A stretch of 64,000 nt of DNA from a virus (Duplodnaviria > Caudoviricetes): the IMG/VR virus record IMGVR_UViG_2936514734_000001, positions 128,001 through 192,000 of that record; one strand, given 5' to 3'. Below the pieces are notes generated by a model. That model worked only from the letters and a program-made list of their open reading frames with translations, ran no database searches and was not told the DNA's origin. Below, in pieces: positions 26,999 to 55,513 of the stretch; position 1 is the first letter of the stretch; each line of letters begins with the position of its first letter. Both the position numbers and the translations under genes were made by a program.

Positions 26999-29482
26999 TT
27001 ATGCTATTTTGTTAAAGTTACCTAAACGCATAGTTACTACATGTCCAACTTGTGCTTGAGAGAAGTTTACTACTTCTAGGATTGTTGCTTCATGTTGTTT
27101 GCCGTCCAACAATACAGCTTCAGTCATAGACGCTAGCCCTTGCGCTACAATCTGACCTTCCTTACCTAGAATTGAAACTACTTTACTAGTAATAGGGCCA
27201 CCGTTCATTTGTAATTCACTTACTACTTGAACCCGTTTGCCGACGGATTTTTGCCAAGAGACAGGAGGGAATCCTGTTGTGAATTGAATAACGGTTTCTG
27301 TTTCAGATAGATTGCCTGATCCATCTTGAATGTTACCTACTACTTGTGTTGTTTGCTTCTCTTCTGTTTGAGCATGAATACCTGTTTCTTTTAAAGTCTG
27401 AGTAATCACACCAGAAATTGCACCTTGTGCTTGATCTAAGACATTTTGACGATCCTGTGGTGTTAAAGCCGTTTGGTTACGAATTTCTTGTACAGCTCCA
27501 CCCGGATCTTTTGATTGAGATGTTACTAATTCTTGATAACCTTGAGCATAATTTGCTTGCGGATTTGGTTCTAGCAATTGTTTAGCTTGTTCTGGATTAT
27601 AATCTTTGTTTAATACTTGCTCCGCTGAAACAGTTTGTTCAGCTGCTGGTTGTGTTGCTTCTTGTGTATTTACAGATTGAACTTCTTCTGTAGTTTGAAC
27701 CAGTTGAGAAGCAGCTTTAGCTTCTTCTTGTTTTTGTGCAAGTTCGCGTTGTCTGAACGCAAATGCATCTTCAGTGATTGGTGCAAAGCTAGTTACATCT
27801 AACACTTCATCTTTATTTTCATACGGGAATGCATCTACTTCGATTAAGTAATCAAACTTAACAACTAATTTCTTACGTTGCGTTGATTCATCAGTTACTA
27901 AATCAACATCTGTTAAACGGGCAACCCATTTAGAGTTACGCATTTGTTGTTTGGATAAGATATTTTCTGTAGTAGCCATTTCAAACACGTCATACATTAA
28001 CGCAATACGGTTTGTGTTGTCTGATGTATTATGATAGAATCCCAAACTTAATGACTGTCCAACCATAGCTTTAGCAGCTTCTAAACTAAACATTGCCTCT
28101 GCTTTAGGGTGAAGTACTAACTCTAGTTTATCAGTTACAGGGAAGTCAGCTGGAACTTCACCTTGTGCTTGTAATTGAACTGCTGGTTTAGCAGGTTGTT
28201 CTTGAGTAACTGGCGGCGCCTGCACAGTTTCCCCGATCACTTCTGCATCTAATTTAAATTGAATAAATGTATTACCATTTGCTTCTTTAATTGTATAATC
28301 TAGAATTTTAGCAGAGTAGTTGTTTGGTTTTAATGGTGATTTTTCATCAATACCAATAACTACTGTTCCGTTAGCGTTCTTAGTAAAGAAACGAGCTGTA
28401 CCATTAGCACATGTAATTCCATAAGGTTGTTGTACAACTACGTCTTTTTGATTTTTAAAGATGTCTACAAAGTTAGGGTGAATTAAGAAGCTAGTAACTA
28501 AGAAAGGTTTTTCTTCAGTTGTTGCTTCTTCTTGAACAGGTTGGACTTCTGATTGAGTAGTAACCTCTTCATCCTTTTGTTCAGTAACTGTTGTTTCTTT
28601 AGCTGATTCCTCTTCTTTTTCCTTAGCATGTTCTGGAACCTCTCCTTTTTCAAGAAGGTTTCTCACGTTCTTAACAATCCAATGATCGTCATCTAGTAAT
28701 TGAAGATTTTTATAAGTCACATCTGTGTAACGTGCACGAGATTTCTTAGTGATTTCACTAAATGACACAACTTGTACAGAGATAAATCCATTATTCTTTA
28801 AGTGGTCTTGTACATGTTGTGGGAATTGTTCTAACTTAATTGTTTTTGCAATAGCAACTACTTCATCATCTAAGCAAAGAACTAATGTGAATGAACGTTT
28901 TTCACGGAACATTACACCGCCACGTTCAATGATAGTATCTAAATGTTTATCATTTGTTGGTGAAATAAGTCCAAAAGTTTCTACATACTCCGTTTCATCT
29001 ATAGGTTGTGTCTCTGCAGATACTTCAGCTTTTACTTCTTGCTTAACTTCAGCAACAGGTGCTTCTGCAACTACAGGAGCTGGTTGAGTTTCAACTTTAA
29101 CTTCCTCTACTTCTAGGCTCATTTCTTCTTGAAGTTCTTGCGCTGGTTCTGTTTGCTTTTCTACTACAACAGACTCAGTTGCAACTTCCTCTTGCTTAGC
29201 TTCTTCATTTGTTGTTTCCTGAACAGCTGGTGTTTCAACTACCTCAGAAGTAGTTTCTTCAATACTTACAGGTTCTTGGATTTCTTTCGTAGCAGATGGG
29301 ACAATATCGTCGATTGCGCGTTCAATATTAAAATCCGGTGCTTCCACATTTGCTACTTCTACGCCTTCAACAGCGAATACTTCTAAGTATTTATGAATAG
29401 CAGAGATAATCCCTTGCTTAACCTCAGTATCTTCTTCAAAATTTACACGTTTTAATAGTTTATCAAATTGTTCTACTTTCAT
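26999..29482 (-). CDS. Large acidic multi-domain hypothetical protein (start probably MKVEQF)
   Basis: RBS AAGGAGAG before the ATG near 29480; E/Q/T-rich linkers between globular segments. Confidence 0.7.
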   Translation of the reverse strand: MKVEQFDKLLKRVNFEEDTEVKQGIISAIHKYLEVFAVEGVEVANVEAPDFNIERAIDDIVPSATKEIQEPVSIEETTSEVVETPAVQETTNEEAKQEEVATESVVVEKQTEPAQELQEEMSLEVEEVKVETQPAPVVAEAPVAEVKQEVKAEVSAETQPIDETEYVETFGLISPTNDKHLDTIIERGGVMFREKRSFTLVLCLDDEVVAIAKTIKLEQFPQHVQDHLKNNGFISVQVVSFSEITKKSRARYTDVTYKNLQLLDDDHWIVKNVRNLLEKGEVPEHAKEKEEESAKETTVTEQKDEEVTTQSEVQPVQEEATTEEKPFLVTSFLIHPNFVDIFKNQKDVVVQQPYGITCANGTARFFTKNANGTVVIGIDEKSPLKPNNYSAKILDYTIKEANGNTFIQFKLDAEVIGETVQAPPVTQEQPAKPAVQLQAQGEVPADFPVTDKLELVLHPKAEAMFSLEAAKAMVGQSLSLGFYHNTSDNTNRIALMYDVFEMATTENILSKQQMRNSKWVARLTDVDLVTDESTQRKKLVVKFDYLIEVDAFPYENKDEVLDVTSFAPITEDAFAFRQRELAQKQEEAKAASQLVQTTEEVQSVNTQEATQPAAEQTVSAEQVLNKDYNPEQAKQLLEPNPQANYAQGYQELVTSQSKDPGGAVQEIRNQTALTPQDRQNVLDQAQGAISGVITQTLKETGIHAQTEEKQTTQVVGNIQDGSGNLSETETVIQFTTGFPPVSWQKSVGKRVQVVSELQMNGGPITSKVVSILGKEGQIVAQGLASMTEAVLLDGKQHEATILEVVNFSQAQVGHVVTMRLGNFNKIA

Positions 29483-29567
29483 TATTATTCTCTCCTTTGC
29501 AAATGCTTGTATTGTATTTTCAATTTCAACTAATGTACTCAAACGACTTACTCCTCTCAGTCTTTTG

Positions 29568-29701
29568 AGCAACCTTCTAGGCAAGGCTGGGTTAGGGCGT
29601 CACACCTAACCCATTCTCCTTTGCCTTTAAAACAGAAAAGGATGATATCTGTATGTCCAGAACAGAAAAGGAGGGTAGTCAGCCCTCCCTAGAAGGTTGC
29701 T
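29568..29701 (-). ncRNA. Scaffold sRNA, copy B
   Basis: Terminal helix GCAACCTTCTAG/CTAGAAGGTTGC; GGAGGG-CTGACTA-CCCTCC hairpin; CCTTGCCTAG 3' motif. Confidence 0.6.
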
Positions 29702-29892: not shown

Positions 29893-30011
29893 TGCTTGGG
29901 CTATTTAATTTACTTAATTTCGGCAAAAAATTTAGGCAAAAGAAAAAGCCCTTCGGCAAAAGGACTCTTTCGTTTAACTAAATTCAAAAAGGATAGGGGC
30001 GTTAGCCCCTA

Positions 30012-30824
30012 TTATTTGATTGGCAACAATGTTGCTCTTGAAGAATGCGTAAGTGCATTAAAGTTAGTGTAGTGATGATACAATCTTCTCTCCGCTAGGA
30101 TTTGATTCAAATAACCCATCGTAATCAAAGCGGCCATCTCATTTGATTGCATTCTTTGTGGTTGAGATACTACATTTTGTCCACAACTTTGAGAAGGTAA
30201 AAGACTCTCTTCATCTTCTAAAATATCAGGATATACACTAGCTACCGGTGGCAGAATTGTATCGTTATGATGAATTCCACATACACAATGACCTGCATAG
30301 CCTGAACGTCTTTTGTCTTCATCGGTTCCTTCTTGCAAGATACCATCTACTCCACAATCAATATAAATAAGATTTTGGTCTTGTTCGAAATATTTATGCA
30401 TAATCTTTCTTGAAGCGTGATTATCCACCGCTCCAATAAGAACCCTAAATAACAAACGTGATTCTTCTAAAACAAATGTTTCTTGATTAGATTGAAAGCA
30501 TTTTGCTAATTCTTCTTCAGACTCTACATATTCTTCTCGATAGAAGATAGGAAACTGATAGGACTTGCCGTAACGTTCCGCTAATATTTTAGCCTTGTTC
30601 TTATTTAAGTCCCTTGGTAGAAAAGGTTGACGCTGTAGATTCTTTTCTTCAACATGATCTAAATCGACAATCGTGTAAGAAAATGTAGTATGAGAAGAAT
30701 TGCTAGATAAAGAGGATAATAACTTAGCTAAACGCTGAGTTATGTACCCACCATTCCCTCCCGCACCAACCTGTACAATATCAAAGTGAATTGTTTTTTC
30801 AGGGAAAAAGTCTAGTGCTTTCAT
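30012..30824 (-). CDS. ThiF/E1-like Ubl-activating enzyme (PRTRC-type), module 1
   Basis: VGAGGNGG, DLDHVEEKNLQRQ, KAKILAERY, GAVDN, SCG candidate catalytic Cys. Confidence 0.88.
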   Translation of the reverse strand: MKALDFFPEKTIHFDIVQVGAGGNGGYITQRLAKLLSSLSSNSSHTTFSYTIVDLDHVEEKNLQRQPFLPRDLNKNKAKILAERYGKSYQFPIFYREEYVESEEELAKCFQSNQETFVLEESRLLFRVLIGAVDNHASRKIMHKYFEQDQNLIYIDCGVDGILQEGTDEDKRRSGYAGHCVCGIHHNDTILPPVASVYPDILEDEESLLPSQSCGQNVVSQPQRMQSNEMAALITMGYLNQILAERRLYHHYTNFNALTHSSRATLLPIK

Positions 30825-30828
30825 CTAA

Positions 30829-31395
30829 TCACCCTTTCTTTGCGCCTGAGACAACAGGAACAACAAGCTTTTTCTCTTCATCTACTTCCATACGACAACG
30901 TTCCTTTGAGAGTTCAGGGTAATCTAATTCCAGCCATTGTCTTAATGCATCTAATGTCATATCGTCCTCTGGTGGATTATGTTGTTGAGCAGCATAAGCA
31001 ACAGTCCATGTTTTATCTACCTTCATATCTTCTTTCTTTTTAACCTGATTCTTAATAGCTTTCGATACAGCGGAATTTTTCTTAGGCTTAGCTTTACTCT
31101 CCTTTTTAACAGGAACTACAGGTGGTTCTTCTTTTTCCTCTTCCTTTTTAACTTCTACCACAGGTGGTTCTTCTTTTTTCTCCTGTGCTTGAGGTTGTGC
31201 AAATGGATTGTCCGTTGTATTTGCGTTTAAATTAGCAAATGGATCAGCGGCAGGCATATTAAATAAATCCGCCCCTGCAGGTTGTTGAAACACGTTATCA
31301 AACCCTTTTGCTTCATTATTTTCTAAGAATGTATTAGCTGTTAAATCTACACTTCCAAATAAATCGTTTGTTTTATTGTTATTATTTTCGCTCAT
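30829..31395 (-). CDS. Disordered N-terminus + C-terminal prokaryotic ubiquitin-like domain ending KKG
   Basis: MTLDALRQWLELDYPELSKE...VVSGAKKG resembles Prok_Ub/PRTRC-C (YPEL...KG). Confidence 0.7.
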   Translation of the reverse strand: MSENNNNKTNDLFGSVDLTANTFLENNEAKGFDNVFQQPAGADLFNMPAADPFANLNANTTDNPFAQPQAQEKKEEPPVVEVKKEEEKEEPPVVPVKKESKAKPKKNSAVSKAIKNQVKKKEDMKVDKTWTVAYAAQQHNPPEDDMTLDALRQWLELDYPELSKERCRMEVDEEKKLVVPVVSGAKKG

Positions 31396-31424
31396 ATGTT
31401 TAACCTCTTTCTATTATTGTTATA

Positions 31425-32129
31425 TTAAGCTTCTGGATAATATTTTCTAACAAATTGTTTTACGATATCCTGTACTGACCAATTAGTTTCTACGAGTTTG
31501 TCATAATCAAAAACAGATTCATTTTGTAATTTCATAAATACATGTCTTAATGAAGTATTCCAGTTGTTCGTTGTCGCTTCAGAATAATAGTGATCTGTAA
31601 ACGAAGCGGACATCCAGTTATGAATAAACGATGACATCTGCGCTAAGTCTTGTACTTCAGACATAAAGAAGAAACACATGTCGCCATCAGATTGAACATG
31701 CGAAAATGGGAACCTATAAAGTTTTGTTGTGTCCCGTAAAACTTTATCCTTAAAACAGAAACATCTTTTTCTCTCTAGTACATACTTACCTTCTGAAGGC
31801 TTAAATACAAAAATGAATAATAAGTTCGGAAAAAGAACATTATCAAATTTTGTTTCATGATATTTGATATTGTGATTTTTCTGTTTCATCTCCATAAATA
31901 AAACAACCTTATCGTCTGGTAGTGTTAAATACTTCACAGTACCTGGTGGTAAAGCAGGTGTTTCAAATACAGGCATTTCATATTTCTTTCTAGTGGTTTT
32001 TCTTTCATAACAATTACGCATTAAAAATTCAAACAATGTATTGTGATCAACGTCAAAAGAACGTTTTAACCCGTCGTGTTCGTACTCTATATGTGGTAAT
32101 TTTTGATCTCCTAATGTAATTTGTATCAT
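31425..32129 (-). CDS. Prokaryotic E2 family D (PRTRC protein B-like), module 1
   Basis: TPALP, FPNLLFIF, LYRFPFSHV..DGDMC. Confidence 0.72.
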   Translation of the reverse strand: MIQITLGDQKLPHIEYEHDGLKRSFDVDHNTLFEFLMRNCYERKTTRKKYEMPVFETPALPPGTVKYLTLPDDKVVLFMEMKQKNHNIKYHETKFDNVLFPNLLFIFVFKPSEGKYVLERKRCFCFKDKVLRDTTKLYRFPFSHVQSDGDMCFFFMSEVQDLAQMSSFIHNWMSASFTDHYYSEATTNNWNTSLRHVFMKLQNESVFDYDKLVETNWSVQDIVKQFVRKYYPEA

Positions 32130-32692
32130 GCAATGTTTTCTCTCCCTTCAGGTTCAAGTAATAAGTAAATATATTCGTTTATTTCTCTAAGTTCTAACAA
32201 GAATTCAATAGTTGTGTGAACATCTATGCCACCATTGTCTTGCATACCAATCATAAAAGTTGCAGGCTGCCGTGCAAATTCACGAAATATAGGCTCTTCG
32301 CTAGTAGCCATAGTTGAATCAGGTAAATATACAAACTCAACTAAGTTACCTCCACCTTTTGAGTGTAGAAGCTGAATGTTTCTAGTAAACTCAAGGAATG
32401 CAGGATGATTAGCATATGGAAGTAGTTCTGGTATACGAAATGCACCTAAGATGTAATAATTCCACCCCTCTGCATGTTCATCATGGATTACGCTAGGGAC
32501 ATCTATCCATTCAAACTGAAAATCAAACATAAGATCCAGAGAGTTATAAATATCGTGAAGATACAAGTCCATATCATCGTCCAATGAATTTCTTAAGAAA
32601 TCTACAAAACGTTCATCCTCTATTCCATGTTTTAATTCAACCGTCTGAATGAATAAATTTTTTTTAATCTCTGCTGCAGAATATTTAAACAT
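32126..32692 (-). CDS. Hypothetical protein
   Basis: 188-aa ORF coupled to the E2 gene. Confidence 0.65.
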   Translation of the reverse strand: MFKYSAAEIKKNLFIQTVELKHGIEDERFVDFLRNSLDDDMDLYLHDIYNSLDLMFDFQFEWIDVPSVIHDEHAEGWNYYILGAFRIPELLPYANHPAFLEFTRNIQLLHSKGGGNLVEFVYLPDSTMATSEEPIFREFARQPATFMIGMQDNGGIDVHTTIEFLLELREINEYIYLLLEPEGRENIA

Positions 32693-32693
32693 A

Positions 32694-33341
32694 TTAAGCT
32701 ACACCTACTTTCTTTCGCTTCTTTATTTCTCCTACAAGATCCTCATAAAATTCACGATAAAACCTTGCGAAATCCATATATGCATTCATAAAGCTAGGGC
32801 CGTAATCATCTACCGTGTGACACTCTATGTCGAAATATATAATGAAGGTGTACTTCATATGGTTCATGTACCTTGTGTAGGACTTACTATCTCCTCCAAA
32901 AAACTGCGTCATAAAGAATGCTTTGTAGAATTCAAGGAAATTCATGAATGAACCATTCATTCCTTCAAACAATTGATTCATACGTAAGGTCCAATCAATT
33001 TGTTCTTGTTCGCTAAATAGATGGAGATTATCAAACAAAAGACCAAAATGAAAAATGCCACCAAATTCGATGGAGAACTGGTCTTCCACGTTCGCCCTTA
33101 TATTTTCTAAACAACCTGCAAATCCATCTTCGGGCCAATCTAATATCACTGATCCACATAGTCTTGATACGGTTTCAGGAACAAATACAGCAAAAACCAA
33201 ATCATCATACATATCGAAAGTTCCTTTACTAGGTGGCTCTTCTGGATTATCAGACAGAGTATTAACATATTCTTGGCATCTTACATAACTTTCATAGAGT
33301 AAAATATTTTTAAAGTATACAAACCCATAGTCCTTAATCAT
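32694..33341 (-). CDS. Hypothetical protein
   Basis: 215-aa ORF in operon. Confidence 0.65.
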   Translation of the reverse strand: MIKDYGFVYFKNILLYESYVRCQEYVNTLSDNPEEPPSKGTFDMYDDLVFAVFVPETVSRLCGSVILDWPEDGFAGCLENIRANVEDQFSIEFGGIFHFGLLFDNLHLFSEQEQIDWTLRMNQLFEGMNGSFMNFLEFYKAFFMTQFFGGDSKSYTRYMNHMKYTFIIYFDIECHTVDDYGPSFMNAYMDFARFYREFYEDLVGEIKKRKKVGVA

Positions 33342-33733
33342 ATAAAGTCACTTTCTTCATCAATAAATTCTTTCAATACAGAAGCTTGTTGTTCTACTCC
33401 AAGGCTTCTTCCGAATTCATAGTAATAATCACGTCCATTTGAAGAAGATGCCTTATCCATAATGTCTTGTAAATCATCATTTATATGTTCATATGCTATT
33501 TCTAATATTTCTCCGCTGTATTCATCCAACATACTTTTTGGAAGTTCACCCTGAGTGAAAAGAACCTTATAAATTTTAGCTATCTTTCCGTAGCGGATTA
33601 ACCAATCCATAGGCATGCTCTTATCTAAATTAGCTTCAAATGTAGTAATTAAGTTTGCAACGTTAACTTTTTCTGTTGGTATCTTTTCTACAACAGTAGT
33701 AAGATCTTGAATGCCATGTAATTTTACCTTCAA
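33338..33733 (-). CDS. Hypothetical protein
   Basis: Overlapping ORF chain. Confidence 0.6.
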   Translation of the reverse strand: MKVKLHGIQDLTTVVEKIPTEKVNVANLITTFEANLDKSMPMDWLIRYGKIAKIYKVLFTQGELPKSMLDEYSGEILEIAYEHINDDLQDIMDKASSSNGRDYYYEFGRSLGVEQQASVLKEFIDEESDFI

Positions 33734-33948
33734 TGTACTTCCTCCTTTGTAAGAGAATTTATAAGGCTATTAAAGTACTTATCATCGGCTCCCAACTGTT
33801 CTGCTAATTCACGTAATGCAATAGATTTACCGTATTCTACATTCATTTTTTGAAAATCATTAAACTTTCTATATTCATCAGCTTTTACTTCAGCCATGAC
33901 TATATTTAAAGCGATTATATTCAATATCTTTATTTGAGCTATAAACAT
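33730..33948 (-). CDS. Hypothetical protein
   Basis: RBS AAGGAGTG. Confidence 0.6.
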   Translation of the reverse strand: MFIAQIKILNIIALNIVMAEVKADEYRKFNDFQKMNVEYGKSIALRELAEQLGADDKYFNSLINSLTKEEVH

Positions 33949-34007
33949 AAAATCACTCCTTCTAAAAAAGTAAAACCGCTACTGTACTAAGCAGCGGTTC
34001 ATGTTTA

Positions 34008-34141: not shown

Positions 34142-35026
34142 TTAATAATCATCATTATCTTCTAAATATCTGCGTTTCATTTCATCAGTAATAGAGATAA
34201 CTTTCTTAGCTAAAACATTATGCATTTCAAATTCTTCAGCTTGACTCCCCATTCCGCTTTGAATACTCCAATGTTTTCGAAGTCGCAACAACATAATCTG
34301 CATCGAGATAAGATCAATGATTGCATCTGCTAATTCTAAATTGTTTGATTTAGCTACTTCCATAACTAAAGACTTCATTAGATACCAACCATCTGCAGAA
34401 GATGAAACAGCTTCAATAAAGATATTTCCTGCACCTTCATTAAAATGGTGTAAGCTATAAGGGAAATCTAATTTTCTTTTTTCATCTTTAAAAACATCTG
34501 GATACTTCTCTTCAAGTTCCTCTCTTAGCTGTTTAATTTCCTGCTCATATTTAGAGACAAATAATTCAGCACCTTGTCTGTATTGTAATCGTAGGTGTTT
34601 GATGTTATCTGATAGAGTGTCAAACACGTCTTGACGCACCATCATAAAACCAATATCTTTATAAACACCTCGTTCAATATAATCATTGATTAATTCATCA
34701 AGATTTGCAGGCTTGCCATTGAGTCTATTATGATTTAATTCTTCTTCATCAATTTTGAAATTGATATTGTCACTCATTAAGTGGGTAAATGCTATTTCAT
34801 GAAGACCTGTAAAATTCTCTACACCGCCATAATCATTGTATTCACCATAGATAGGCATAGAGATTGGAAACCATTGATCCCACGGATAACAAAAACCACC
34901 TGAATTTGTTTCTGCATGTTTTTGATGTTTTAAAACAAAAAGAACTACTTTCTCCCCGCTTAAAATTGGTAAATTACTTAATCCACATGTACCATTCCAA
35001 CAACCCATTATAATTACCCCCGTCAT
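34142..35026 (-). CDS. Phage hypothetical protein
   Basis: MGCWNGTCGLSNLPI...GEYNDYG. Confidence 0.7.
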   Translation of the reverse strand: MTGVIIMGCWNGTCGLSNLPILSGEKVVLFVLKHQKHAETNSGGFCYPWDQWFPISMPIYGEYNDYGGVENFTGLHEIAFTHLMSDNINFKIDEEELNHNRLNGKPANLDELINDYIERGVYKDIGFMMVRQDVFDTLSDNIKHLRLQYRQGAELFVSKYEQEIKQLREELEEKYPDVFKDEKRKLDFPYSLHHFNEGAGNIFIEAVSSSADGWYLMKSLVMEVAKSNNLELADAIIDLISMQIMLLRLRKHWSIQSGMGSQAEEFEMHNVLAKKVISITDEMKRRYLEDNDDY

Positions 35027-35837: not shown

Positions 35838-36971
35838 TTAACCTACTCGACGTTTTACTACAGGGCGAGGAGCTAATTGAGCATGGATTAGGCGAGAATG
35901 CTTTAATACACGTTTACGTACTGAATCTTTACGAATGATATCTGATGCATTTCCATCTTCTACAGATACAATATCAAATACTTTTTTAAATAATTCATCT
36001 ACGAATAACTTACGTTGTTCGTATGTTGCATATTGTTGCTTCCATTTAACAACACCATTGCGATTTACTTCTACACCAACACTTGCTAGTCCAGCTACTA
36101 GAAGTAATCCAATACCTTTTAAAATACCTGTTTTCTTTTCAGCACCACGTTTTTTAATCCAGTTTTGACCTACGCTAGACTTAAGTGGTTTTAGTTGGAT
36201 AACAAATTCTTCATTAAATAATGCATATGATGCAATTTCATGAACATCTTTCGCAATCCATTTAAGAGTATTTTCAAAGAATGTGCTTGAAGCATTTACA
36301 CGATTTAAGAAGCTAACGTTAGCATGTTCTGATTGTTCGATATTTAATAGAATATCAATTTTCTTAGTTTCACCATCATGTTTGAATAAGTTTAAGAAAG
36401 CAACTTCTTCCTTAATTTCAACAGTGCCAGAATCACCTTCGTGATAAATAACGTCTGCTGCTTTTTCTTCAATACAGTTTTTGTGCCAATCAAAAGCACC
36501 TTCTTTATTTTTTAAGCTGTATACTTGTAGTCGTTTATTTAAGTTTAGAGCTTCAGCTACTTTACCGATATTTGCTCTATTAATACCAATTTCAATTGTT
36601 ACTTTTACTTGGCTTACATCTCTACCATGTGCTTTTAATGCGTGGTATGTATGTCCACCATTCGCAATGCCATCTTCATCACCAAACGTAATTGTGAAAG
36701 AACCATCACCATTTGAATCACAAGATGAAGCAAAGATTGTAATACCACTAGAATTCTTGCGAGCAAACATTTCAGGTTCAGAAATTAGAGTCTTAACCAT
36801 TTCTTTATAGTTGAGGTTTGCTTCCCCGATAAATTGACGTGGATTTGGCTTTGTTGGAAGTTCTAACCCTACAAAACTATCACCGCGTACTGTACCTACC
36901 ATTTGTTTTGAACCATCTGAAAAAGTTGTCTCTACAAATTTTGCATTTCTTAATACTACTGAATTTGTCAT
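35838..36971 (-). CDS. AIPR-like (ParB-superfamily) protein
   Basis: PNPRQF...TL..EPEMF..KNSSGITI...GIANGGHT. Confidence 0.65.
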   Translation of the reverse strand: MTNSVVLRNAKFVETTFSDGSKQMVGTVRGDSFVGLELPTKPNPRQFIGEANLNYKEMVKTLISEPEMFARKNSSGITIFASSCDSNGDGSFTITFGDEDGIANGGHTYHALKAHGRDVSQVKVTIEIGINRANIGKVAEALNLNKRLQVYSLKNKEGAFDWHKNCIEEKAADVIYHEGDSGTVEIKEEVAFLNLFKHDGETKKIDILLNIEQSEHANVSFLNRVNASSTFFENTLKWIAKDVHEIASYALFNEEFVIQLKPLKSSVGQNWIKKRGAEKKTGILKGIGLLLVAGLASVGVEVNRNGVVKWKQQYATYEQRKLFVDELFKKVFDIVSVEDGNASDIIRKDSVRKRVLKHSRLIHAQLAPRPVVKRRVG

Positions 36972-48637: not shown

Positions 48638-49226
48638 GCTTCAACTCTACATTAGGGAATGAGTACAATTTATTCTTTAATTCTAGGGCGTAATCTCTAA
48701 ATATCTTTTGTGCAGGTAGTTTAGTTGATACATGCTGTACCATGGATGCACTATCTGTTACAAATATGATTCTGTCTGCTTTAACCTTATATTTTTCTAC
48801 AAACAATAAAGCTTGTAGTAAGCCATGATACTCCGCAAGAGTCGAATTAATATCTACTGTTTCACCTGTTGGTAAAGTAATTTTGTCACCAATAAATGTC
48901 GCATCATGTTTTAACATCTTTTGATCACCGTAGATAGCAAAAGCACTAGCCGATAATGAACGTAAGTTGTTGTCATGATTATTTCGAACACCTCCATCAG
49001 TAAAGACAACCACAGTGTTATATTTCTCTTGAAATGTTTTCTGAGTCTTTAAATCTTCTAATAGAGCGCCTACATCGTATCCATTTTCCTTCATCTCTTT
49101 CAATAGCAAATCTTGTTTTAAAGAAATTTCTTTTGCTGAACTATGATTACCGCTATCAACTTGTTCATAAAAAGAAAAAAACAGATGACTAAACTCACTA
49201 GCCATCTGCTCGACTGTATTAACCAA
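48546..49226 (-). CDS. Ribonuclease HI-like protein
   Basis: VFTDGG.R.N, NSTLAEYHGL..AL, TDS, HVPREHNKITDALVN. Confidence 0.85.
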   Translation of the reverse strand: MVNTVEQMASEFSHLFFSFYEQVDSGNHSSAKEISLKQDLLLKEMKENGYDVGALLEDLKTQKTFQEKYNTVVVFTDGGVRNNHDNNLRSLSASAFAIYGDQKMLKHDATFIGDKITLPTGETVDINSTLAEYHGLLQALLFVEKYKVKADRIIFVTDSASMVQHVSTKLPAQKIFRDYALELKNKLYSFPNVELKHVPREHNKITDALVNQLMDMYERGEEFAIN

Positions 49227-50094
49227 GGTATTGATTAATGATACTTTCTTTATTTAGGAACGTGCGGTAAATTCCTTTTCGCGTATCAAAAGTGATAGCA
49301 AAACAATGTAATCCAGGCATATCCTCATTATCTATTCTTGCAGTTAGGAGGATATTTGCAAAGTTAAACAATAGGTTAGCAGCTGTAATGTTAGTCATAA
49401 TGTTTTGTGGGTGAGATACCGCTGCTTCGTCACAACTTAGCTCTGTAGGTAGTTTATCCGCACCTTCTAGTACTTCAGGAAACATTTCACCTACCATTGG
49501 TGTGCGGAACCAAGAGTTTTGACCAAGTTCATTTACATAACCTCTTCCTGGTAAAAATCCGCATACAACTTGACCATTCAAGAATTCATTACCACTACTT
49601 AATGAAAAAACGCCTCTAGTTTTTTGTTGAAGCTCTAATGCTGCCTCATGAATGAATACGCGTGTTTTATTATTATCAACACAATCAACTAATACAGGAA
49701 TCATAGGAGGTTCATTTTCCAATAAAGATAAAACCAACTTAGTTAACATTTCTGTATTAGTGATATATTCATCTAAATATTGAATGTTTGTGCTAAAAGC
49801 AACACCGTAACGGGTAGATAGAACTTCTGCTTTATTCTTTTCTAAATCCTTTTCTACAAAGTTCTGACGATTAAGGTTAGATAAAGACACAGTATCTGCA
49901 TCAATAAGAACTAACTTATGCGGAGGTAGTCCTTCCATTTTTCTTAATTTATTTGTAATTGAGATTTGTCTTGCTAGGTTAGGAATAAGGTAACCACCTG
50001 TTCCACCCGCACCCACTACTACGAATAGTTTAGATATGTGATATGATGTGTCAAGATTGTATGTAGTTTCTAAATTTAATTGTAACGTTGACAT
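49219..50094 (-). CDS. ThiF/E1-like Ubl-activating enzyme, module 2
   Basis: VVGAGGTGG, DADTVSLSNLNRQ, KAEVL..RY, DCVDN, SCDE candidate catalytic Cys. Confidence 0.9.
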   Translation of the reverse strand: MSTLQLNLETTYNLDTSYHISKLFVVVGAGGTGGYLIPNLARQISITNKLRKMEGLPPHKLVLIDADTVSLSNLNRQNFVEKDLEKNKAEVLSTRYGVAFSTNIQYLDEYITNTEMLTKLVLSLLENEPPMIPVLVDCVDNNKTRVFIHEAALELQQKTRGVFSLSSGNEFLNGQVVCGFLPGRGYVNELGQNSWFRTPMVGEMFPEVLEGADKLPTELSCDEAAVSHPQNIMTNITAANLLFNFANILLTARIDNEDMPGLHCFAITFDTRKGIYRTFLNKESIINQYLG

Positions 50095-50150: not shown

Positions 50151-51416
50151 TTAAATTTGGTTTTGTTTAACCGCACCGATTGCGGCTTCAATAATTTGGT
50201 TGTAACCTAACTTTGTATAATCAGCTGTGATATCAGCAACATTATCCGCTACATCCAACTTCCTTACTTCATCTTTTAAGTCTAAGAACTGAACAATTTC
50301 TGCGTTTTCAAAATCATTCGTACTGAATGGTAGTGCTGAATGACCACCATATCCTTCATTTAGAAGGTGACTGCTGTACATAGCTTCCTCCAAGCCGTAG
50401 AGATCGCCTTCAAAATCCTCTGGAAATAATGTTGTTTGCCCTGATAAAGGCTGAAGTTTTCCGTTTGCTTTGGCGAGATAACTGTTACTGGGATAGGTTG
50501 ATTTCAAATTCGGAACATATTTCTTAGTATGTTGTTCCATCCATTCCGCTGGGTATTCAATATTTTCGAATGGTCCTCGATAAAGCTCCTCTGTAGTTTC
50601 TGTAAACGTCTGTGACTCGAAACCTGGAACAGTAGAGCTAACAACATGAGTTGATGTCGTAACCATCATAGGCCAATCAAACAATACAGAAGGGCATACT
50701 AATTTTTTAGATTTACCTGTAACATAACGAAATGCGAAAGCAGGTTGTTCATTTTTAATCTGACCCCATACTCCATAAAACTGCGTGCTGTTTTCATTGG
50801 CGTCATCTGTAGAGCTAAAAAATGCATTCATAGTATGGTGTGAATGAGTTTCTGCTAATAAGGATAAGTTTTGTCTTAGCCAGTCAACCATTGGGTCGCC
50901 ATGAAATTCTGACAAACTAGCACTATTTTCTTGTCGTGGAACATACACAACTAATTGCCCATCAACCAACAACCCCTTCATTGGAGTATCATCAGAGTAC
51001 TTAACTGGCAATGCTTTGTTGTCTTTATTCCAAAAGAAAAGCAATGATGCTTCAGTTCCATCCTTAGCGTGAACATCACGATAAAAGCTTAAAGCCATTT
51101 GAAGATACTTGAATGGAATTTTCGGAACAAGTAGTTCTGTTCCTTCAGTCATTTTATTTAAACCAGGGATGCTATCTTTAAAATCTTGTACCTTTGTTTT
51201 AAATACTGCTGTATCAGTTTTCTCTACACGGAATAAACCGTTAGCTGCTGTCACAAAGTTAATCTTTTTCAAAGAGTCTGTGTTGTAATTAGAGTCATAA
51301 GCTAAGTATTCCGTTACTTGACTTGCAATCTGACTCGCTAGTAGATTTGATAGATTAAGTGTCATTTGTATGCTCTCCATTCTAACTTTTTCTCTTGTAA
51401 TAAATGTTATTAACAC
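50151..51416 (-). CDS. JAB/MPN+ metalloprotease (PRTRC protein A-like)
   Basis: Upstream GTEA Glu and ETHSHHTMNAFFSSTDD JAMM motif. Confidence 0.88.
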   Translation of the reverse strand: MLITFITREKVRMESIQMTLNLSNLLASQIASQVTEYLAYDSNYNTDSLKKINFVTAANGLFRVEKTDTAVFKTKVQDFKDSIPGLNKMTEGTELLVPKIPFKYLQMALSFYRDVHAKDGTEASLLFFWNKDNKALPVKYSDDTPMKGLLVDGQLVVYVPRQENSASLSEFHGDPMVDWLRQNLSLLAETHSHHTMNAFFSSTDDANENSTQFYGVWGQIKNEQPAFAFRYVTGKSKKLVCPSVLFDWPMMVTTSTHVVSSTVPGFESQTFTETTEELYRGPFENIEYPAEWMEQHTKKYVPNLKSTYPSNSYLAKANGKLQPLSGQTTLFPEDFEGDLYGLEEAMYSSHLLNEGYGGHSALPFSTNDFENAEIVQFLDLKDEVRKLDVADNVADITADYTKLGYNQIIEAAIGAVKQNQI

Positions 51417-51508: not shown

Positions 51509-52279
51509 TCATTCAAAGATGCCTGGAAGATAGTTTTTCACTGCTTGTTGCACATCTAATGTTGAAGATGATTTAAGCGAGTCAAAGGGATAAACAAATT
51601 CTTCTCCCGCTTCTTTGCTTGCTTGTAGTTTTCTAGATAAATCAACCATATGATAAACAGCACAATCTGTATTAAATGGTGAATATTCCTCGGATTCAGG
51701 ATCTGGATTCCATTCAAATTCTTTTACTCGATTATGAGAAAGATCAAAGTTAAATGGTTGAGCAAAGAAACGTGCTGGAATATTTTGAATCGATTTACCC
51801 GTTGGTACCTCTGGATTTTCATGTCCCCAACAAATACCATGAGCAACACCGATATTAGGAAAAGGCGCATGTAAGACCTTATCCTTAAATGAAAGCAATT
51901 CGTGTTTAAGTACGTACATCATAGAATGTCTTAAACGTTTTCTTCCATTTCCATCAGTAAATACTTCAAAAATCCAAAGCATTGGCGGTACTGGAATAGT
52001 AAACTCTTTAGGAACACCAGTATCACGCGATGCAAAAACAACCTGTCTCTCTGTTGCAGGTGTGGTCATTACATAGCCTTCGTAATGATTCTTACGATAA
52101 TACTTAACAACTCCCCATTGAGAAGGAAGAAGCGGTGTTTCCATGGCCTGCTCCTTCATAAAGATTTCTTGAATAGTTTCGATGTTTGTATGTTTAATTG
52201 TTTTAATCCCTTGCTCATTAACAGTCGTTACTGTTACCTTTTCTGGTTCTAAAACAATAGTTGTGCTTGGTGTAGCCAT
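51509..52279 (-). CDS. Prokaryotic E2 family D (PRTRC protein B-like), module 2
   Basis: TPLLP, PVPPMLWIF, HAPFPNI...GICWG, FF..PFN.DL. Confidence 0.8.
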   Translation of the reverse strand: MATPSTTIVLEPEKVTVTTVNEQGIKTIKHTNIETIQEIFMKEQAMETPLLPSQWGVVKYYRKNHYEGYVMTTPATERQVVFASRDTGVPKEFTIPVPPMLWIFEVFTDGNGRKRLRHSMMYVLKHELLSFKDKVLHAPFPNIGVAHGICWGHENPEVPTGKSIQNIPARFFAQPFNFDLSHNRVKEFEWNPDPESEEYSPFNTDCAVYHMVDLSRKLQASKEAGEEFVYPFDSLKSSSTLDVQQAVKNYLPGIFE

Positions 52280-54628: not shown

Positions 54629-55336
54629 TTAGTTGCCTTTAGTTCCTGCTTTAGCAGAGAAAGTAACTGTGTTTCCATTTTGAACAACGTTAGCATTTTC
54701 TAATTCCGGAAAGTTTTCTGCCATTGCTACTTTAAGTTGGTTAAGGTCTGTTGTTGCTGGCACGTTGATTTTTGTATCACCGTAAACCACTTCTAGTTGA
54801 TCTGCACCTTTTGTACCTGCTTTTGCGTTGAAGATAATTTGACCTTCATTTACTGTTACGTTAGCATTTTCTAATTCAGGGAAGTTCTCAGCCATTGCTA
54901 CTTTGATGTCCGCTAATTCAGTGCTTGCTGGTAAGTTAATTTTAGTATCTCCATAAACTACTTCTACAGTTTCCATTTCACCCGCTCCTTTAGTTCCTGC
55001 TTTTGCTTTAAATACGATTTCATTGTCGTTCACTTGTACATCAGCGTTTTCAAGCTCCGGGAAATTCTCAGCCATCGCTGCTTTGATGCTTGATAATTCA
55101 GTACCTACTGGTAAATCGATTTTAGTATCTCCGTAAATCACCTTTAAGTTTTCCATGTTTGTTGCCCCTTTCGTTCCTGCTTTCGCTGTGAATTCAATTA
55201 CATTACCGTTTACTGCTACATTTGCATTTTCAAGTTCTGGGAAGTTTTCAGCCATAGCTACCTTAATACTTTCTAAAGCTGTACCTTCTGGAAGATTGAT
55301 TTTTGTATCACCATAAATTACTTGTAATGTGTTCAT
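54629..55336 (-). CDS. Tetrameric prokaryotic ubiquitin-like precursor (4 x Prok_Ub, each ending AKAGTKG)
   Basis: Four ~57-aa repeats V.YGDTKI.LP...AMAENFPELENA...F.AKAGTKG; RBS GAGGAG before the ATG at 55336. Confidence 0.85.
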   Translation of the reverse strand: MNTLQVIYGDTKINLPEGTALESIKVAMAENFPELENANVAVNGNVIEFTAKAGTKGATNMENLKVIYGDTKIDLPVGTELSSIKAAMAENFPELENADVQVNDNEIVFKAKAGTKGAGEMETVEVVYGDTKINLPASTELADIKVAMAENFPELENANVTVNEGQIIFNAKAGTKGADQLEVVYGDTKINVPATTDLNQLKVAMAENFPELENANVVQNGNTVTFSAKAGTKGN

Positions 55337-55513
55337 TTGAAATTCTCCTCTTATAGAAACCATTAGTTTTTTATTTTTCAATAGGGTTTCGTTAATTTTT
55401 TTTATTTTTTTTAGGGCATTGTGTATGCATATAGAAATCTAGGTTAATACCCTATAAAAACTTAGATTCCACTAGAAATTACTCAAAAAAAATAGACCTG
55501 CTTGATCAGCGGG

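Follow-up and report, generated by a model that had tools for sequence, protein, structure and literature searches.

The window, i.e. the whole stretch of 64,000 nucleotides that was analysed, carries a set of overlapping or closely spaced genes on the minus strand, hereafter module 1, with terminator-like hairpins on both sides. Judged by this layout, module 1 is a single transcription unit. In the order of transcription, its features are as follows:

30012-33948, minus strand: module 1, the operon
33973..34000, minus strand: terminator-like hairpin (11-bp stem with 5 GC pairs, then a T-run) at the end of the upstream gene, taken as the 5' boundary of module 1
33730..33948, minus strand: 72-aa ORF, the first in the operon, not conserved
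33338..33733, minus strand: 131-aa alpha-helical protein, member of the X family (hhalign and AF2)
32694..33341, minus strand: 215-aa acidic, aromatic-rich protein, kept only in the pBtic235-like (Bacillus) clade
32126..32692, minus strand: 188-aa acidic protein, whose stop overlaps the E2 start, kept only in the Bacillus clade
31425..32129, minus strand: 234-aa E2-like protein (Prok-E2_D) with catalytic Cys152 and downstream His180
31674-31676, minus strand: codon of E2 Cys152 (Cys of "DGDMC"), the predicted catalytic residue
30829..31395, minus strand: 188-aa ubiquitin-like (Ubl) protein, ending ...SGAKKG before the stop codon
31021..31395, minus strand: N-terminal arm of the Ubl protein, residues 1-125 (AF2 and composition)
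31357..31371, minus strand: TNDLF, Ubl residues 9-13, a degenerate copy of the family motif Q-[LF]-[DS]-L-F-[GD]
31261-31275, minus strand: GADLF, a second degenerate copy in the same arm
30829..31020, minus strand: beta-grasp (ubiquitin-like) domain, residues 126-188 (pLDDT >90, Ubl-dominated structural matches)
30832-30834, minus strand: codon of the free Gly188, directly before the stop codon
30012..30824, minus strand: 270-aa E1-like adenylating enzyme of the ThiF family (GxGGxG at residues 20-26, Arg finger in NLQRQ)
30183-30185, minus strand: codon of E1 Cys214 (Cys of "SCG"), invariant in the aligned E1s
29942..30012, minus strand: two terminator-like hairpins (30012-29993 and 29971-29942) directly past the E1 stop, marking the 3' boundary

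An earlier note on this DNA had described an operon with its own E1, an E2-like protein and a 188-aa protein, and all of these were found in place on the minus strand. The replicon that carries them is a 239-kb pBtic235-like jumbo phage-plasmid of the Bacillus type, and its host is probably Priestia megaterium. In all lineages the module lies within blocks of replication, recombination and nucleotide-metabolism genes (SNF2 helicase, RecA, SSB, UDG, NrdD, DnaN). An AIPR abortive-infection-type gene is located 2 kb upstream of module 1.

The E1 matches Pfam ThiF (2.9e-7) as well as, under the cut-off, NCBIfam PRTRC_ThiF (2e-22); every other score of the NCBIfam PRTRC models against module 1 also falls short of its cut-off. 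The E2-like protein exceeds the cut-off of Pfam Prok-E2_D (PF14460) with 4.9e-6. For neither enzyme was a related solved structure detectable. The two cysteines singled out previously are indeed invariant: Cys214, together with the GxGGxG, RQ and VDN motifs, in all ten aligned E1s, and Cys152 in 10/10 aligned E2s, most of which also keep the DH motif. Within the Iyer/Aravind "type 6d"/PRTRC-like (Prok-E2_D) Ubl conjugation cassettes, module 1 forms a divergent branch that lacks the JAB.

The Ubl protein consists of two parts, in agreement with the claim of an acidic and Lys-rich disordered N-terminus followed by a domain that ends in a free Gly. Residues 1-70 are acidic and Phe-rich (net charge -7), residues 71-125 are Lys-rich (17 Lys), and the AF2 model presents residues 1-108 as disordered (pLDDT 50-65, without secondary structure) and residues 109-122 as a helix. 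Such an arm is a family-wide feature rather than a peculiarity of module 1. Residues 109-188 are modelled with pLDDT >90 and include a beta-beta-alpha-beta-beta core. A structural search of the PDB with the C-terminal domain returned ubiquitin, ISG15, SUMO or MoaD domains as nearly all of the top 50 matches (Z 4.6-5.5 over 56-61 residues, rmsd 2.4-3.4), so that the predicted domain appears Ubl-like, though with a Z of about 5 the fold match is only middling. Foldseek found nothing significant with the Ubl protein, and its similarity to Pfam ThiS (1.2e-3) remains under the cut-off; among 56 family members, nine match Pfam Prok_Ub and three match NCBIfam PRTRC_C. The free terminal Gly is not due to chance, because the protein stops exactly there in 14/14 close homologues and in 61 of the approximately 159 family representatives examined.

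The absence of a JAB peptidase from module 1, which had been noticed from the sequence alone, was borne out by Pfam, PADLOC and NCBIfam, and the only Prok-JAB match in the whole 239-kb genome lies in the second Ubl module of the replicon:

ThiF 49219-50094, JAB 50151-51416, E2 51509-52279, four-repeat poly-Ubl 54629-55381, same strand as module 1: module 2

Module 2 had been characterized as a capped Ubl with a JAB, and its poly-Ubl does carry a one-residue cap; the distance between the modules, given as about 19 kb, is 18.4 kb. The rule that the earlier note had suggested testing by synteny held in every locus surveyed: none of the 15 loci with a free-Gly Ubl contain a JAB, while all five capped-Ubl loci have one directly downstream, between the Ubl and the E1. 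In five further loci the Ubl is fused to the JAB, with the cut after ...KKG. Moreover, a relative phage (191 kb, 97%-complete) possesses a single Prok-E2_D cassette, of the module-1 type, and no Prok-JAB. The free Gly, the synteny and this JAB-free relative together support the previous proposal of a separate E1-E2-Ubl module whose Ubl needs no processing.

Nonetheless, a free C-terminal Gly also fits a sulfur carrier of the ThiS/MoaD type, in which the E1 would make a thiocarboxylate on the terminal Gly for the synthesis of thio-cofactors or thionucleosides, with no protein conjugation. The weak ThiS match and one homologue named "MoaD/ThiS family protein" in RefSeq point in this direction. 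We regard this as very improbable, as every locus encodes an E2 whose Cys is invariant, the analysis found no partner of the rhodanese, sulfurtransferase or synthase kind, and the sister forms either carry a cap or are joined to a JAB peptidase. Besides, an arm of 125 residues (108 of them disordered) that bears a docking motif ahead of the beta-grasp core would be out of place in a carrier.

The two modules share the superfamilies of E1, E2 and Ubl, the replicon and the strand; they differ in that module 2 combines a JAB with a capped, armless poly-Ubl, whereas module 1 has the arm and neither cap nor JAB. A CBM-like match in the tail of the module-2 JAB is not conserved. The comparison only suggests that the pathways are orthogonal, as had been supposed. 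Alternatively, module 1 may not be autonomous, and the JAB at 50151-51416 could serve as its eraser, or the enzymes could cross-charge, in a single network. This genome and its nearest relatives, G001 and G002, carry both modules, both Ubls end in a K-G tail, and the two Ubls are members of the same superfamily: a profile of the module-1 Ubl matches poly-Ubl proteins (1e-19 and 1e-11), while hhalign relates the module-1 Ubl to the module-2 repeats with E 1.5e-4. This scenario is unlikely, however, given the relative that has the module-1 type alone, the lack of a nearby JAB in the free-Gly loci (0/15), and enzymes of which the E1s are only 29% identical (8e-24) and the E2s barely alignable.

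All four ORFs upstream of the E2 had been put forward as candidate E3 or substrate components; the 131-aa protein is the one that is conserved widely among the cassettes. Its alignment matches that of the X family in hhalign (probability 92.5%, E 4.8e-7, 96 columns), five helices are predicted with a mean pLDDT of 71 (AF2), and its conserved C-terminal end is aromatic-hydrophobic (here DFI). Most cassettes of the module-1 type have an X protein ahead of the E2, and X ties the 131-aa ORF to the free-Gly, capped and fused cassettes. The 215-aa protein, which has no family match and no profile link to other cassettes, has orthologues with 40-44% identity only within the Bacillus clade (L001, L002, L007-L009). 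The 188-aa acidic protein, restricted to the same clade, takes the place of an approximately 165-aa "Y" protein present elsewhere; this equivalence is one of position and size, as no sequence link to the Y proteins is detectable. Finally, the 72-aa ORF has neither a family match nor a BLAST homologue in any related locus, and therefore its membership in the operon is doubtful.

The arm offers a hint as to where this long-unexplained cassette family may act. TNDLF (PWM score 15.9) aligns at the position homologous to QLDLF of two family members (P0010 and P0023) and represents the local form of a family-wide motif, Q-[L/F]-[D/S]-L-F-[G/D]. Its PWM matches 105/151 arms versus 0.9 expected from shuffles (maximum 4), but since the arms scored were also those on which the PWM had been trained, the regular expressions provide the cleaner statistic: Q[LFIMV]x[LIMF]F occurs in 38 of the 151 arms (0.69 in shuffles) and the exact QL[SD]LF in 10 (0.0 in shuffles). 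The composition of 111 sites is Q54 / L32+F30 / D45+S37 / L83 / F103 / G50+D27. In bacteria, the beta-clamp-binding consensus is QL[S/D]LF, or Q-phi-x-L-F, exemplified in B. subtilis by PolC (QLSLF), PolY1 (QLDLF), PolY2 (QLNLF) and MutS (QLSFF), and its position 1 counts among those reported to matter most for binding (PMC12309361; bioRxiv 10.64898/2026.05.27.728225). By sequence comparison, the family motif agrees with this consensus at five positions, one of them being position 3 with its D/S preference. The earlier note had taken "DLF" for a DLF/NPF-type short motif; an endocytic-type reading of it is rejected in favor of the family-wide motif that matches the sliding-clamp-binding consensus.

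Four independent related cassettes have a dnaN paralog within three genes. In two of them (L006 and L031) the order is DnaN-X-Y-E2-[arm-Ubl-JAB]-E1, where dnaN immediately precedes X and points the same way, with gaps of 19 and 66 bp; in L015 dnaN is found two genes past the E1, and in L041, the sole Prok-E2_D match in an unbiased sample of 401 Bacillota genomes, the order is E1-NrdD-DnaN-SSB. Related jumbo phages with consensus motifs (QFSLF, QLALF) encode their own DnaN; none was found in the genome of module 1 or in G001 and G002. It could be that cassettes and dnaN are neighbours because both reside in replication gene blocks, not because their products interact directly. Given the motif and the dnaN neighbours, the clamp or replisome would most likely be the site of action of the pathway. 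The clamp is the weakest step of this proposal, because the copies in module 1 are degenerate (TNDLF, GADLF) and the motif there has neither Gln at position 1 nor an aliphatic residue at position 2. It is conceivable that the arm docks instead on a partner within the cassette (X, Y, E2 or E1), the resemblance to clamp motifs and the dnaN neighbours being coincidental. In most loci the arm-bearing Ubl comes with X and with a Y protein in the equivalent position, the conserved aromatic tail of X suggests a network of peptide docking, and the clade of module 1 has dispensed with Gln and yet retained several Phe motifs. We nevertheless consider such internal docking doubtful in view of the five-position fit to the clamp consensus and of the dnaN paralogs lying no more than three genes away, twice immediately ahead of X.

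We propose that module 1 is a complete, self-contained, JAB-less "type 6d" cassette that acts at the clamp or replisome via its arm, and we assign to this explanation as a whole a probability of about 0.68. The E1 would adenylate Gly188 and take the Ubl as a thioester on Cys214, from which it would move to Cys152 of the E2 and then to a lysine of the target. Because the Ubl gene stops at Gly, no maturation protease would be needed, and since the tag would be passed on whole, the full 188-aa protein, arm included, would constitute the modification. Module 1 would have no eraser of its own. The clamp, or proteins bound to it, might in this way acquire a covalently tethered clamp-docking peptide, or tagged phage proteins might gain clamp binding. 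The phage-plasmid would possess a second Ubl tagging kit, with the tag made ready to use without a trimming protease.

The targets may also be sought among the structural proteins of competing phages rather than replication factors, if the prophage-plasmid used module 1 in Bil-like defence or superinfection exclusion. In favor of this, the Bil systems, built from E1, E2, Ubl and JAB, act against phages, and disordered N-terminal tails occur on some bacterial Ubls (PMC11601603). Iyer speculated in 2006 about a role in protection or addiction (PMC1779556), and the AIPR gene is close by. We deem this improbable, as PADLOC matches nothing past weak E1 similarity, the surroundings are replicative in all lineages, and mitomycin C raises the pBtic235 counterparts of the first three genes 4- to 14-fold, together with the lytic programme of the phage itself (PMC9700832 supplementary file 3). 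The pBtic235 homologues of E2, Ubl and E1 are not among the significantly induced genes (same file).

Returning to the conjugation cassette that we favor, its closest known counterpart is "type 6d" of Iyer, Burroughs and Aravind 2006 (PMC1779556), which corresponds to the Prok-E2_D / Prok_Ub / Prok-JAB cassettes of Pfam. Type 6d cassettes are largely the same as the NCBIfam PRTRC system. Like module 1, type 6d encodes the Ubl, E1-like and E2-like proteins as separate genes, its E2, which lacks the classical His, conserves a His downstream of the catalytic Cys, an alpha-helical protein that diverges rapidly stands alongside, and it resides on mobile elements, with B. cereus and B. thuringiensis already among the hosts (PMC1779556). 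Unlike type 6d, module 1 has no JAB, its Ubl gene stops at the conjugating Gly, it includes two clade-specific extra proteins, and no ParB-family protein was found in its whole genome. The 2006 description (PMC1779556) makes no mention of an N-terminal arm, an arm motif or dnaN linkage. The Bil and Bub operons also have stand-alone E1, E2 and Ubl genes, some of their Ubls have disordered N-terminal tails, and they perform real conjugation (PMC11601603 and works cited there). However, Bil always includes a JAB deubiquitinase (BilC), the E2 family of Bil and Bub differs from that of module 1, PADLOC and sequence searches give no signal of membership, and no clamp-type motif has been reported for either.

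The archaeal SAMPs, TtuB of Thermus and the eukaryotic Urm1 are likewise made with a free C-terminal Gly, use E1s of the ThiF/MoeB type without proteolytic maturation, and double as sulfur carriers. To our knowledge these systems have no E2 and no long N-terminal arm, both of which are present in module 1. A coupling of a Ubl pathway to the sliding clamp is known from the ubiquitination and SUMOylation of eukaryotic PCNA, together with the PIP-box, a short hydrophobic peptide that occupies a pocket of the clamp. Homology of the components ends at the folds of E1, E2 and Ubl, so that the resemblance would be one of analogy, and in module 1 the putative docking peptide is located on the Ubl itself.

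The module on the minus strand of the window (30012-33948) consists of seven co-oriented genes, overlapping or closely spaced, in the order 72-aa, 131-aa, 215-aa and 188-aa ORFs, E2, the 188-aa tag protein and E1. It is bracketed by terminator-like hairpins, listed here in the direction of the minus strand:

34000-33973, minus strand, terminator-like hairpin on the 5' side of the module
30012-29993, minus strand, terminator-like hairpin on the 3' side
29971-29942, minus strand, second terminator-like hairpin on the 3' side

The E1 (30012-30824) matches the Pfam family ThiF (PF00899; 2.9e-7, 30.3 bits, cut-off 28.1) and the E2 (31425-32129) matches Prok-E2_D (PF14460; 4.9e-6, 26.8 bits, cut-off 25). 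In alignments of ten E1s and ten E2s, taken from the module and related loci, the GxGGxG loop, the arginine finger in RQ, the aspartate in VDN and Cys214 in QSCGQ are invariant among the E1s, as is Cys152 (in DMCFF) among the E2s, where it is followed by a conserved DH motif that contains His180. A phmmer search of PDB sequences revealed no relatives of either enzyme, PHROGs gave no matches to the cassette proteins, and PADLOC 2023, a release that may not include Bil models, returned weak CBASS-type E1-E2 matches alone (E >= 0.002), with JAB absent. Neither Pfam, NCBIfam, PADLOC nor a custom JAB HMM detects a JAB within 30012-33948, and the sole JAB of the whole genome is that of module 2 (50151-51416), the second cassette of the same genome. 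The earlier note, which had read from the sequence an E1 with an SCG cysteine, an E2 with DGDMC, a 188-aa protein with a terminal Gly and no JAB in the module, was right in every one of these items.

The tag protein (30829-31395) ends in SGAKKG, directly followed by the stop codon. In the AF2 model, calculated with 56 relatives, residues 1-108 lack secondary structure (pLDDT 50-65), and residues 109-188 are modelled confidently (pLDDT above 90) as a helix followed by a beta-beta-alpha-beta-beta core. Foldseek found nothing in the PDB for the Ubl model at E <= 0.001. An alignment against the whole PDB that is independent of Foldseek placed almost only ubiquitin-fold proteins among its top 50 matches (ISG15, ubiquitin, Fubi, SUMO, FAT10 and MoaD), spanning residues 127-188 with Z-scores of 4.6-5.5 and rmsd of 2.4-3.4 over 56-61 residues; this list is very uniform, though the Z-scores are middling. 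At the sequence level, the window's own protein has a Pfam ThiS match below the cut-off and no PRTRC_C match, and among the 56 relatives 9 match Prok_Ub (PF14454) and 3 match, weakly, the NCBIfam family PRTRC_C; database names include "PRTRC system protein C" for one relative and "MoaD/ThiS family protein" for another. The beta-grasp model, the Ubl-dominated PDB matches and the Prok_Ub and PRTRC_C matches in the relatives bear out the suggestion that the C-terminal domain is Ubl-like. The profile of this domain also matches poly-Ubl proteins (1e-19 and 1e-11), one of which ends in GTKGN like the poly-Ubl of module 2, and hhalign aligns it with the module-2 repeats at E 1.5e-4; the similarity of the tag protein to the module-2 poly-Ubl is not significant by BLASTP, and the link comes from profile methods alone.

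An exhaustive profile search yielded 220 cluster representatives of the Ubl family at E <= 1e-3. Among the approximately 159 examined, 61 stop exactly at the Gly residue ("free-Gly"), 36 end in a cap 1-12 residues long ("capped"), 6 have an extension of 13-60 residues, and 55 run on into a further domain of about 200 residues at the C-terminus, which in the loci open to inspection is a JAB with the HxH...S..D signature ("fused"). The corresponding loci were gathered from genomes, viral contigs, metagenomes and assemblies, and scored with HMMs for Ubl, E1, E2, JAB, DnaN and X, an alpha-helical family encoded upstream of E2. A JAB was found within none of the 15 distinct free-Gly loci, which represent about ten lineages, and in all five capped loci its gene lies directly after that of the Ubl and before that of E1; five further loci encode the Ubl-JAB fusion. 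The survey that the earlier note had proposed, expecting free-Gly Ubls without a JAB and capped Ubls with one, has thus given a simple rule without exception (0/15 versus 5/5 loci), by which the form of the Ubl C-terminus foretells the presence of JAB. Since it does so, JAB seems to serve in these cassettes chiefly as a maturation enzyme, with which the lineage of the module would have dispensed. Both types of module are present in the pBtic235-type phages, and a related 191-kb phage (97% complete) contains a single Prok-E2_D cassette and no Prok-JAB anywhere, indicating that a free-Gly module is viable without a JAB encoded by the element. The module-2 JAB (421 aa) is about twice as long as the JABs that stand alone in capped cassettes (189-224 aa), and its C-terminal extension differs among relatives; a match in its tail that resembles a clamp-binding motif (GQTTLFPE, PWM 12.5) was rejected as chance because it is deleted in the pBtic235-type orthologues.

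Almost every member of the Ubl family, with any type of C-terminus, has an N-terminal extension that precedes the beta-grasp domain. These arms are dominated by one motif, which mostly falls among residues 1-15 and precedes a Lys-rich linker; the composition of the motif over 111 sites is Q 54, L/F 62, D/S 82, L 83, F 103 and G/D 77. With a position matrix it is detected in 105 of 151 arms, where shuffled arms give 0.9 on expectation and 4 at most; for the unbiased pattern Q[LFIMV]x[LIMF]F the figures are 38 arms versus 0.69, and for the exact QL[SD]LF 10 versus 0.0. The consensus for binding to the bacterial beta sliding clamp is QL[S/D]LF or Q-phi-x-L-F, with positions 1, 4 and 5 weighing most, as exemplified in B. 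subtilis by PolC (QLSLF), PolY1 (QLDLF), PolY2 (QLNLF) and MutS (QLSFF) (PMC12309361; bioRxiv 10.64898/2026.05.27.728225). In sequence, the arm motif matches this consensus. In the window's tag protein, TNDLF at residues 9-13 is aligned to QLDLF of the clade members P0010 and P0023; Asp, Leu and Phe at positions 3, 4 and 5 are kept (residues 11-13, in the disordered segment), and Gln at position 1 and the aliphatic residue at position 2 are lost, with Thr and Asn in their place. The protein also contains GADLF at residues 41-45 and additional Phe motifs, and the arms of its clade have two to four such motifs each. Further along the arm there is a tandem Pro-Val-Lys/Glu element (window 31090-31185, residues about 71-102; EEPPVVEVKKE/EEPPVVPVKKE), the core of which, A/PPVVPVK, is found again in many arms of the clade and may represent a second conserved linear motif in their Lys-rich half. 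Some arms of the fused proteins (P0049, P0051, P0054, P0071 and P0080) include a folded peripheral-subunit-binding domain (Pfam E3_binding, PF02817) between the motif and the Ubl; hence the arms can hold extra adaptor modules.

In four independent mobile-element loci a dnaN paralog is found at most three genes away from a Prok-E2_D cassette, and in two of them it is the first gene of the apparent operon:

L006:7167-8276, dnaN paralog
L031:4286-5410, dnaN paralog
L015:7668-8813, dnaN paralog
L041:14959-16077, dnaN paralog

The first of these loci, from Moorellaceae, encodes a full DnaN, which scores 186 bits on TIGR00663 (cut-off 138) and has each of the three Pfam clamp domains, directly before the cassette, with a gap of 19 bp, in the order DnaN-X-Y-E2-[QLNLF arm-Ubl-JAB]-E1, where Y is the protein encoded directly before E2. 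The same gene order is seen in L031, a JGI metagenome locus unrelated to L006 in sequence. In L015, dnaN is two genes past E1 and adjoins nrdD; in this cassette a gene for a 497-aa HNH/RRXRR endonuclease (L015:4022-5515), which is probably a homing element splitting the operon, separates the Ubl-JAB and E1 genes. The fourth locus, which has no JAB, is the sole match among 401 sampled Bacillota genomes that were searched for Prok-E2_D only, so such cassettes are rare. It has the order X-like, Y-like, E2, a 118-aa protein, two small ORFs, E1, NrdD, DnaN and SSB, and its 118-aa protein, with an NNLFGE arm, a terminal Gly and a weak link to the Ubl profile (E about 5e-4, probability 25-31%), probably belongs with the Ubl family. 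None of the four cassette-linked dnaN genes has an oriC context; their genomes hold further DnaN copies, and the separate chromosomal dnaN scores better. The phage relatives with consensus motifs (QFSLF, QLALF) encode a DnaN of their own about 40 kb from the module, and no DnaN is encoded in the genomes of the window's clade.

X (about 110 aa) is encoded upstream of E2 in most loci, whichever of the three Ubl types they carry, and the 131-aa ORF of the window belongs to this family (hhalign probability 92.5%, E 4.8e-7, 96 columns). Five helices are predicted for the 131-aa protein, and neither Foldseek against the PDB nor a shape search of the Atlas gave anything meaningful for its model. In the X-family alignment (A6) all proteins but one end in an aromatic-hydrophobic dipeptide (DFI, AFI, TFF, EYI, DYF, PFY and others), including the 131-aa ORF (DFI; window 33341-33364), and this ending resembles the sort of docking tail that SSB has. 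Y (about 165 aa) is acidic and aromatic, and the Y proteins are connected among themselves by a weak profile link (34% probability). The 188-aa upstream ORF of the window is the Y equivalent by position; no profile link was found between it or the 215-aa ORF and the Y proteins of other cassettes, and its Atlas search was uninformative (best feature score 0.89, TM below 0.5). The 215-aa ORF is clade-specific, with a single near-identical match in a word-based homologue search, and the 72-aa ORF has no homologue among the related loci. In pBtic235, 30 min after addition of mitomycin C, the homologues of the 131-, 215- and 188-aa genes are induced by log2 3.8, 2.0 and 3.1, respectively, and those of E2, Ubl and E1 are missing from the list of significant genes (PMC9700832, supplementary file 3).

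The virus record that contains the window has 239,374 bp and is rated 100% complete. The window is AT-rich (GC about 35%), with almost all genes on the minus strand, and its 29-37 kb region is 70-74% identical in nucleotide sequence to Bacillus "plasmids" of 200-240 kb, including B. velezensis pAD3 and the 235-kb B. thuringiensis israelensis element, pBtic235, which experiments showed to be a circular, inducible jumbo prophage (PMC9700832). A near-identical protein is assigned by NCBI to Priestia megaterium, and a blastn search of a phage collection gave no match. The region is embedded among replication genes (DnaE-type Pol III alpha, RecA, UvrD, Sak and ThyA). Just upstream of the module there are genes for an abortive-infection-type AIPR protein (35838-36971), which keeps the same position in pAD3, and for a phrog_5960 protein (34142-35026) with a weak LmuB-like match in PADLOC. 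After the module, across about 430 bp of structured intergenic DNA, follows a gene for an 861-aa protein without a family match (26999-29584), which has homologues with 48-52% identity in all pBtic235-like relatives, and then two Amidase_3-LysM endolysin genes; in pBtic235 the homologue of the 861-aa protein is strongly induced (log2FC 4.6; PMC9700832, supplementary file 3). In jumbo-phage lineages other than pBtic235, an SNF2-family helicase of about 620 aa is encoded a few genes upstream of the free-Gly cassette (L003:4458-6335, and at the same position in L012, L004, L022 and L024); there is none near the window's module.

Judging from the conserved catalytic residues, a ready-made 188-aa tag would pass from E1 to E2 and then to a lysine. 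The arm motif and the gene neighbourhoods point to the sliding clamp as the place of action, most weakly in the case of the window's degenerate motif. We propose, tentatively and with a probability of about 0.3, that the Prok-E2_D/PRTRC-like cassettes, including their JAB-less phage version, may be sliding-clamp-directed modifiers, in which the Ubl would dock by its N-terminal motif in the DnaN pocket and then be ligated either to the clamp or to a protein bound to it. This would give prokaryotes and phages a counterpart of PCNA ubiquitination and SUMOylation, with the docking peptide on the tag itself, and the mark made by a JAB-less cassette would be irreversible, allowing the phage-plasmid to permanently block or reserve host clamps. 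Our literature search found no paper tying such cassettes to the clamp; if the link is true, this would be the first case, in bacteria or phages, of a Ubl pathway directed at the replication clamp, and a new means for mobile elements to manipulate host replication. The family-wide clamp-type motif and the repeated linkage to dnaN make the question of the target directly testable. The module is a natural minimal version that does without protease and cap and has a single tag, and is therefore a clean system in which to ask whether such enzymes conjugate at all.

Cassettes of the type 6d/PRTRC class were described from sequence in 2006 (Iyer 2006, PMC1779556), and our search of the literature found no paper that gives them a function. 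The module resembles type 6d in its Prok-E2_D E2, with the conserved Cys and a His C-terminal to it, in the adjacent ThiF-type E1 with its conserved Cys, and in a stand-alone beta-grasp Ubl protein of the Prok_Ub type, although the window's own protein scores on ThiS only, below the cut-off. Type 6d's fast-diverging alpha-helical protein also has a counterpart, the 131-aa ORF, which we equate with it by inference rather than by alignment. Unlike type 6d, the module has no JAB peptidase gene; the set of the Bil antiphage system (BilA-D) includes a JAB deubiquitinase. From PRTRC (TIGR03734-03742) it differs in that its proteins score under the curated cut-offs (PRTRC_ThiF 2e-22, 79.6 bits against 144.75; PRTRC_B 16.6 bits against 131.45) or, for protein C, do not match, and in that neither ParB_N nor PRTRC_parB is found in the 239-kb genome at E <= 0.01. 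The module derives from the type 6d/PRTRC-like cassettes and would work as they do, and because it lacks two of their defining features, with no JAB and no ParB in the genome, and scores below the PRTRC cut-offs, it should be regarded as a variant of them rather than as a member sensu stricto.
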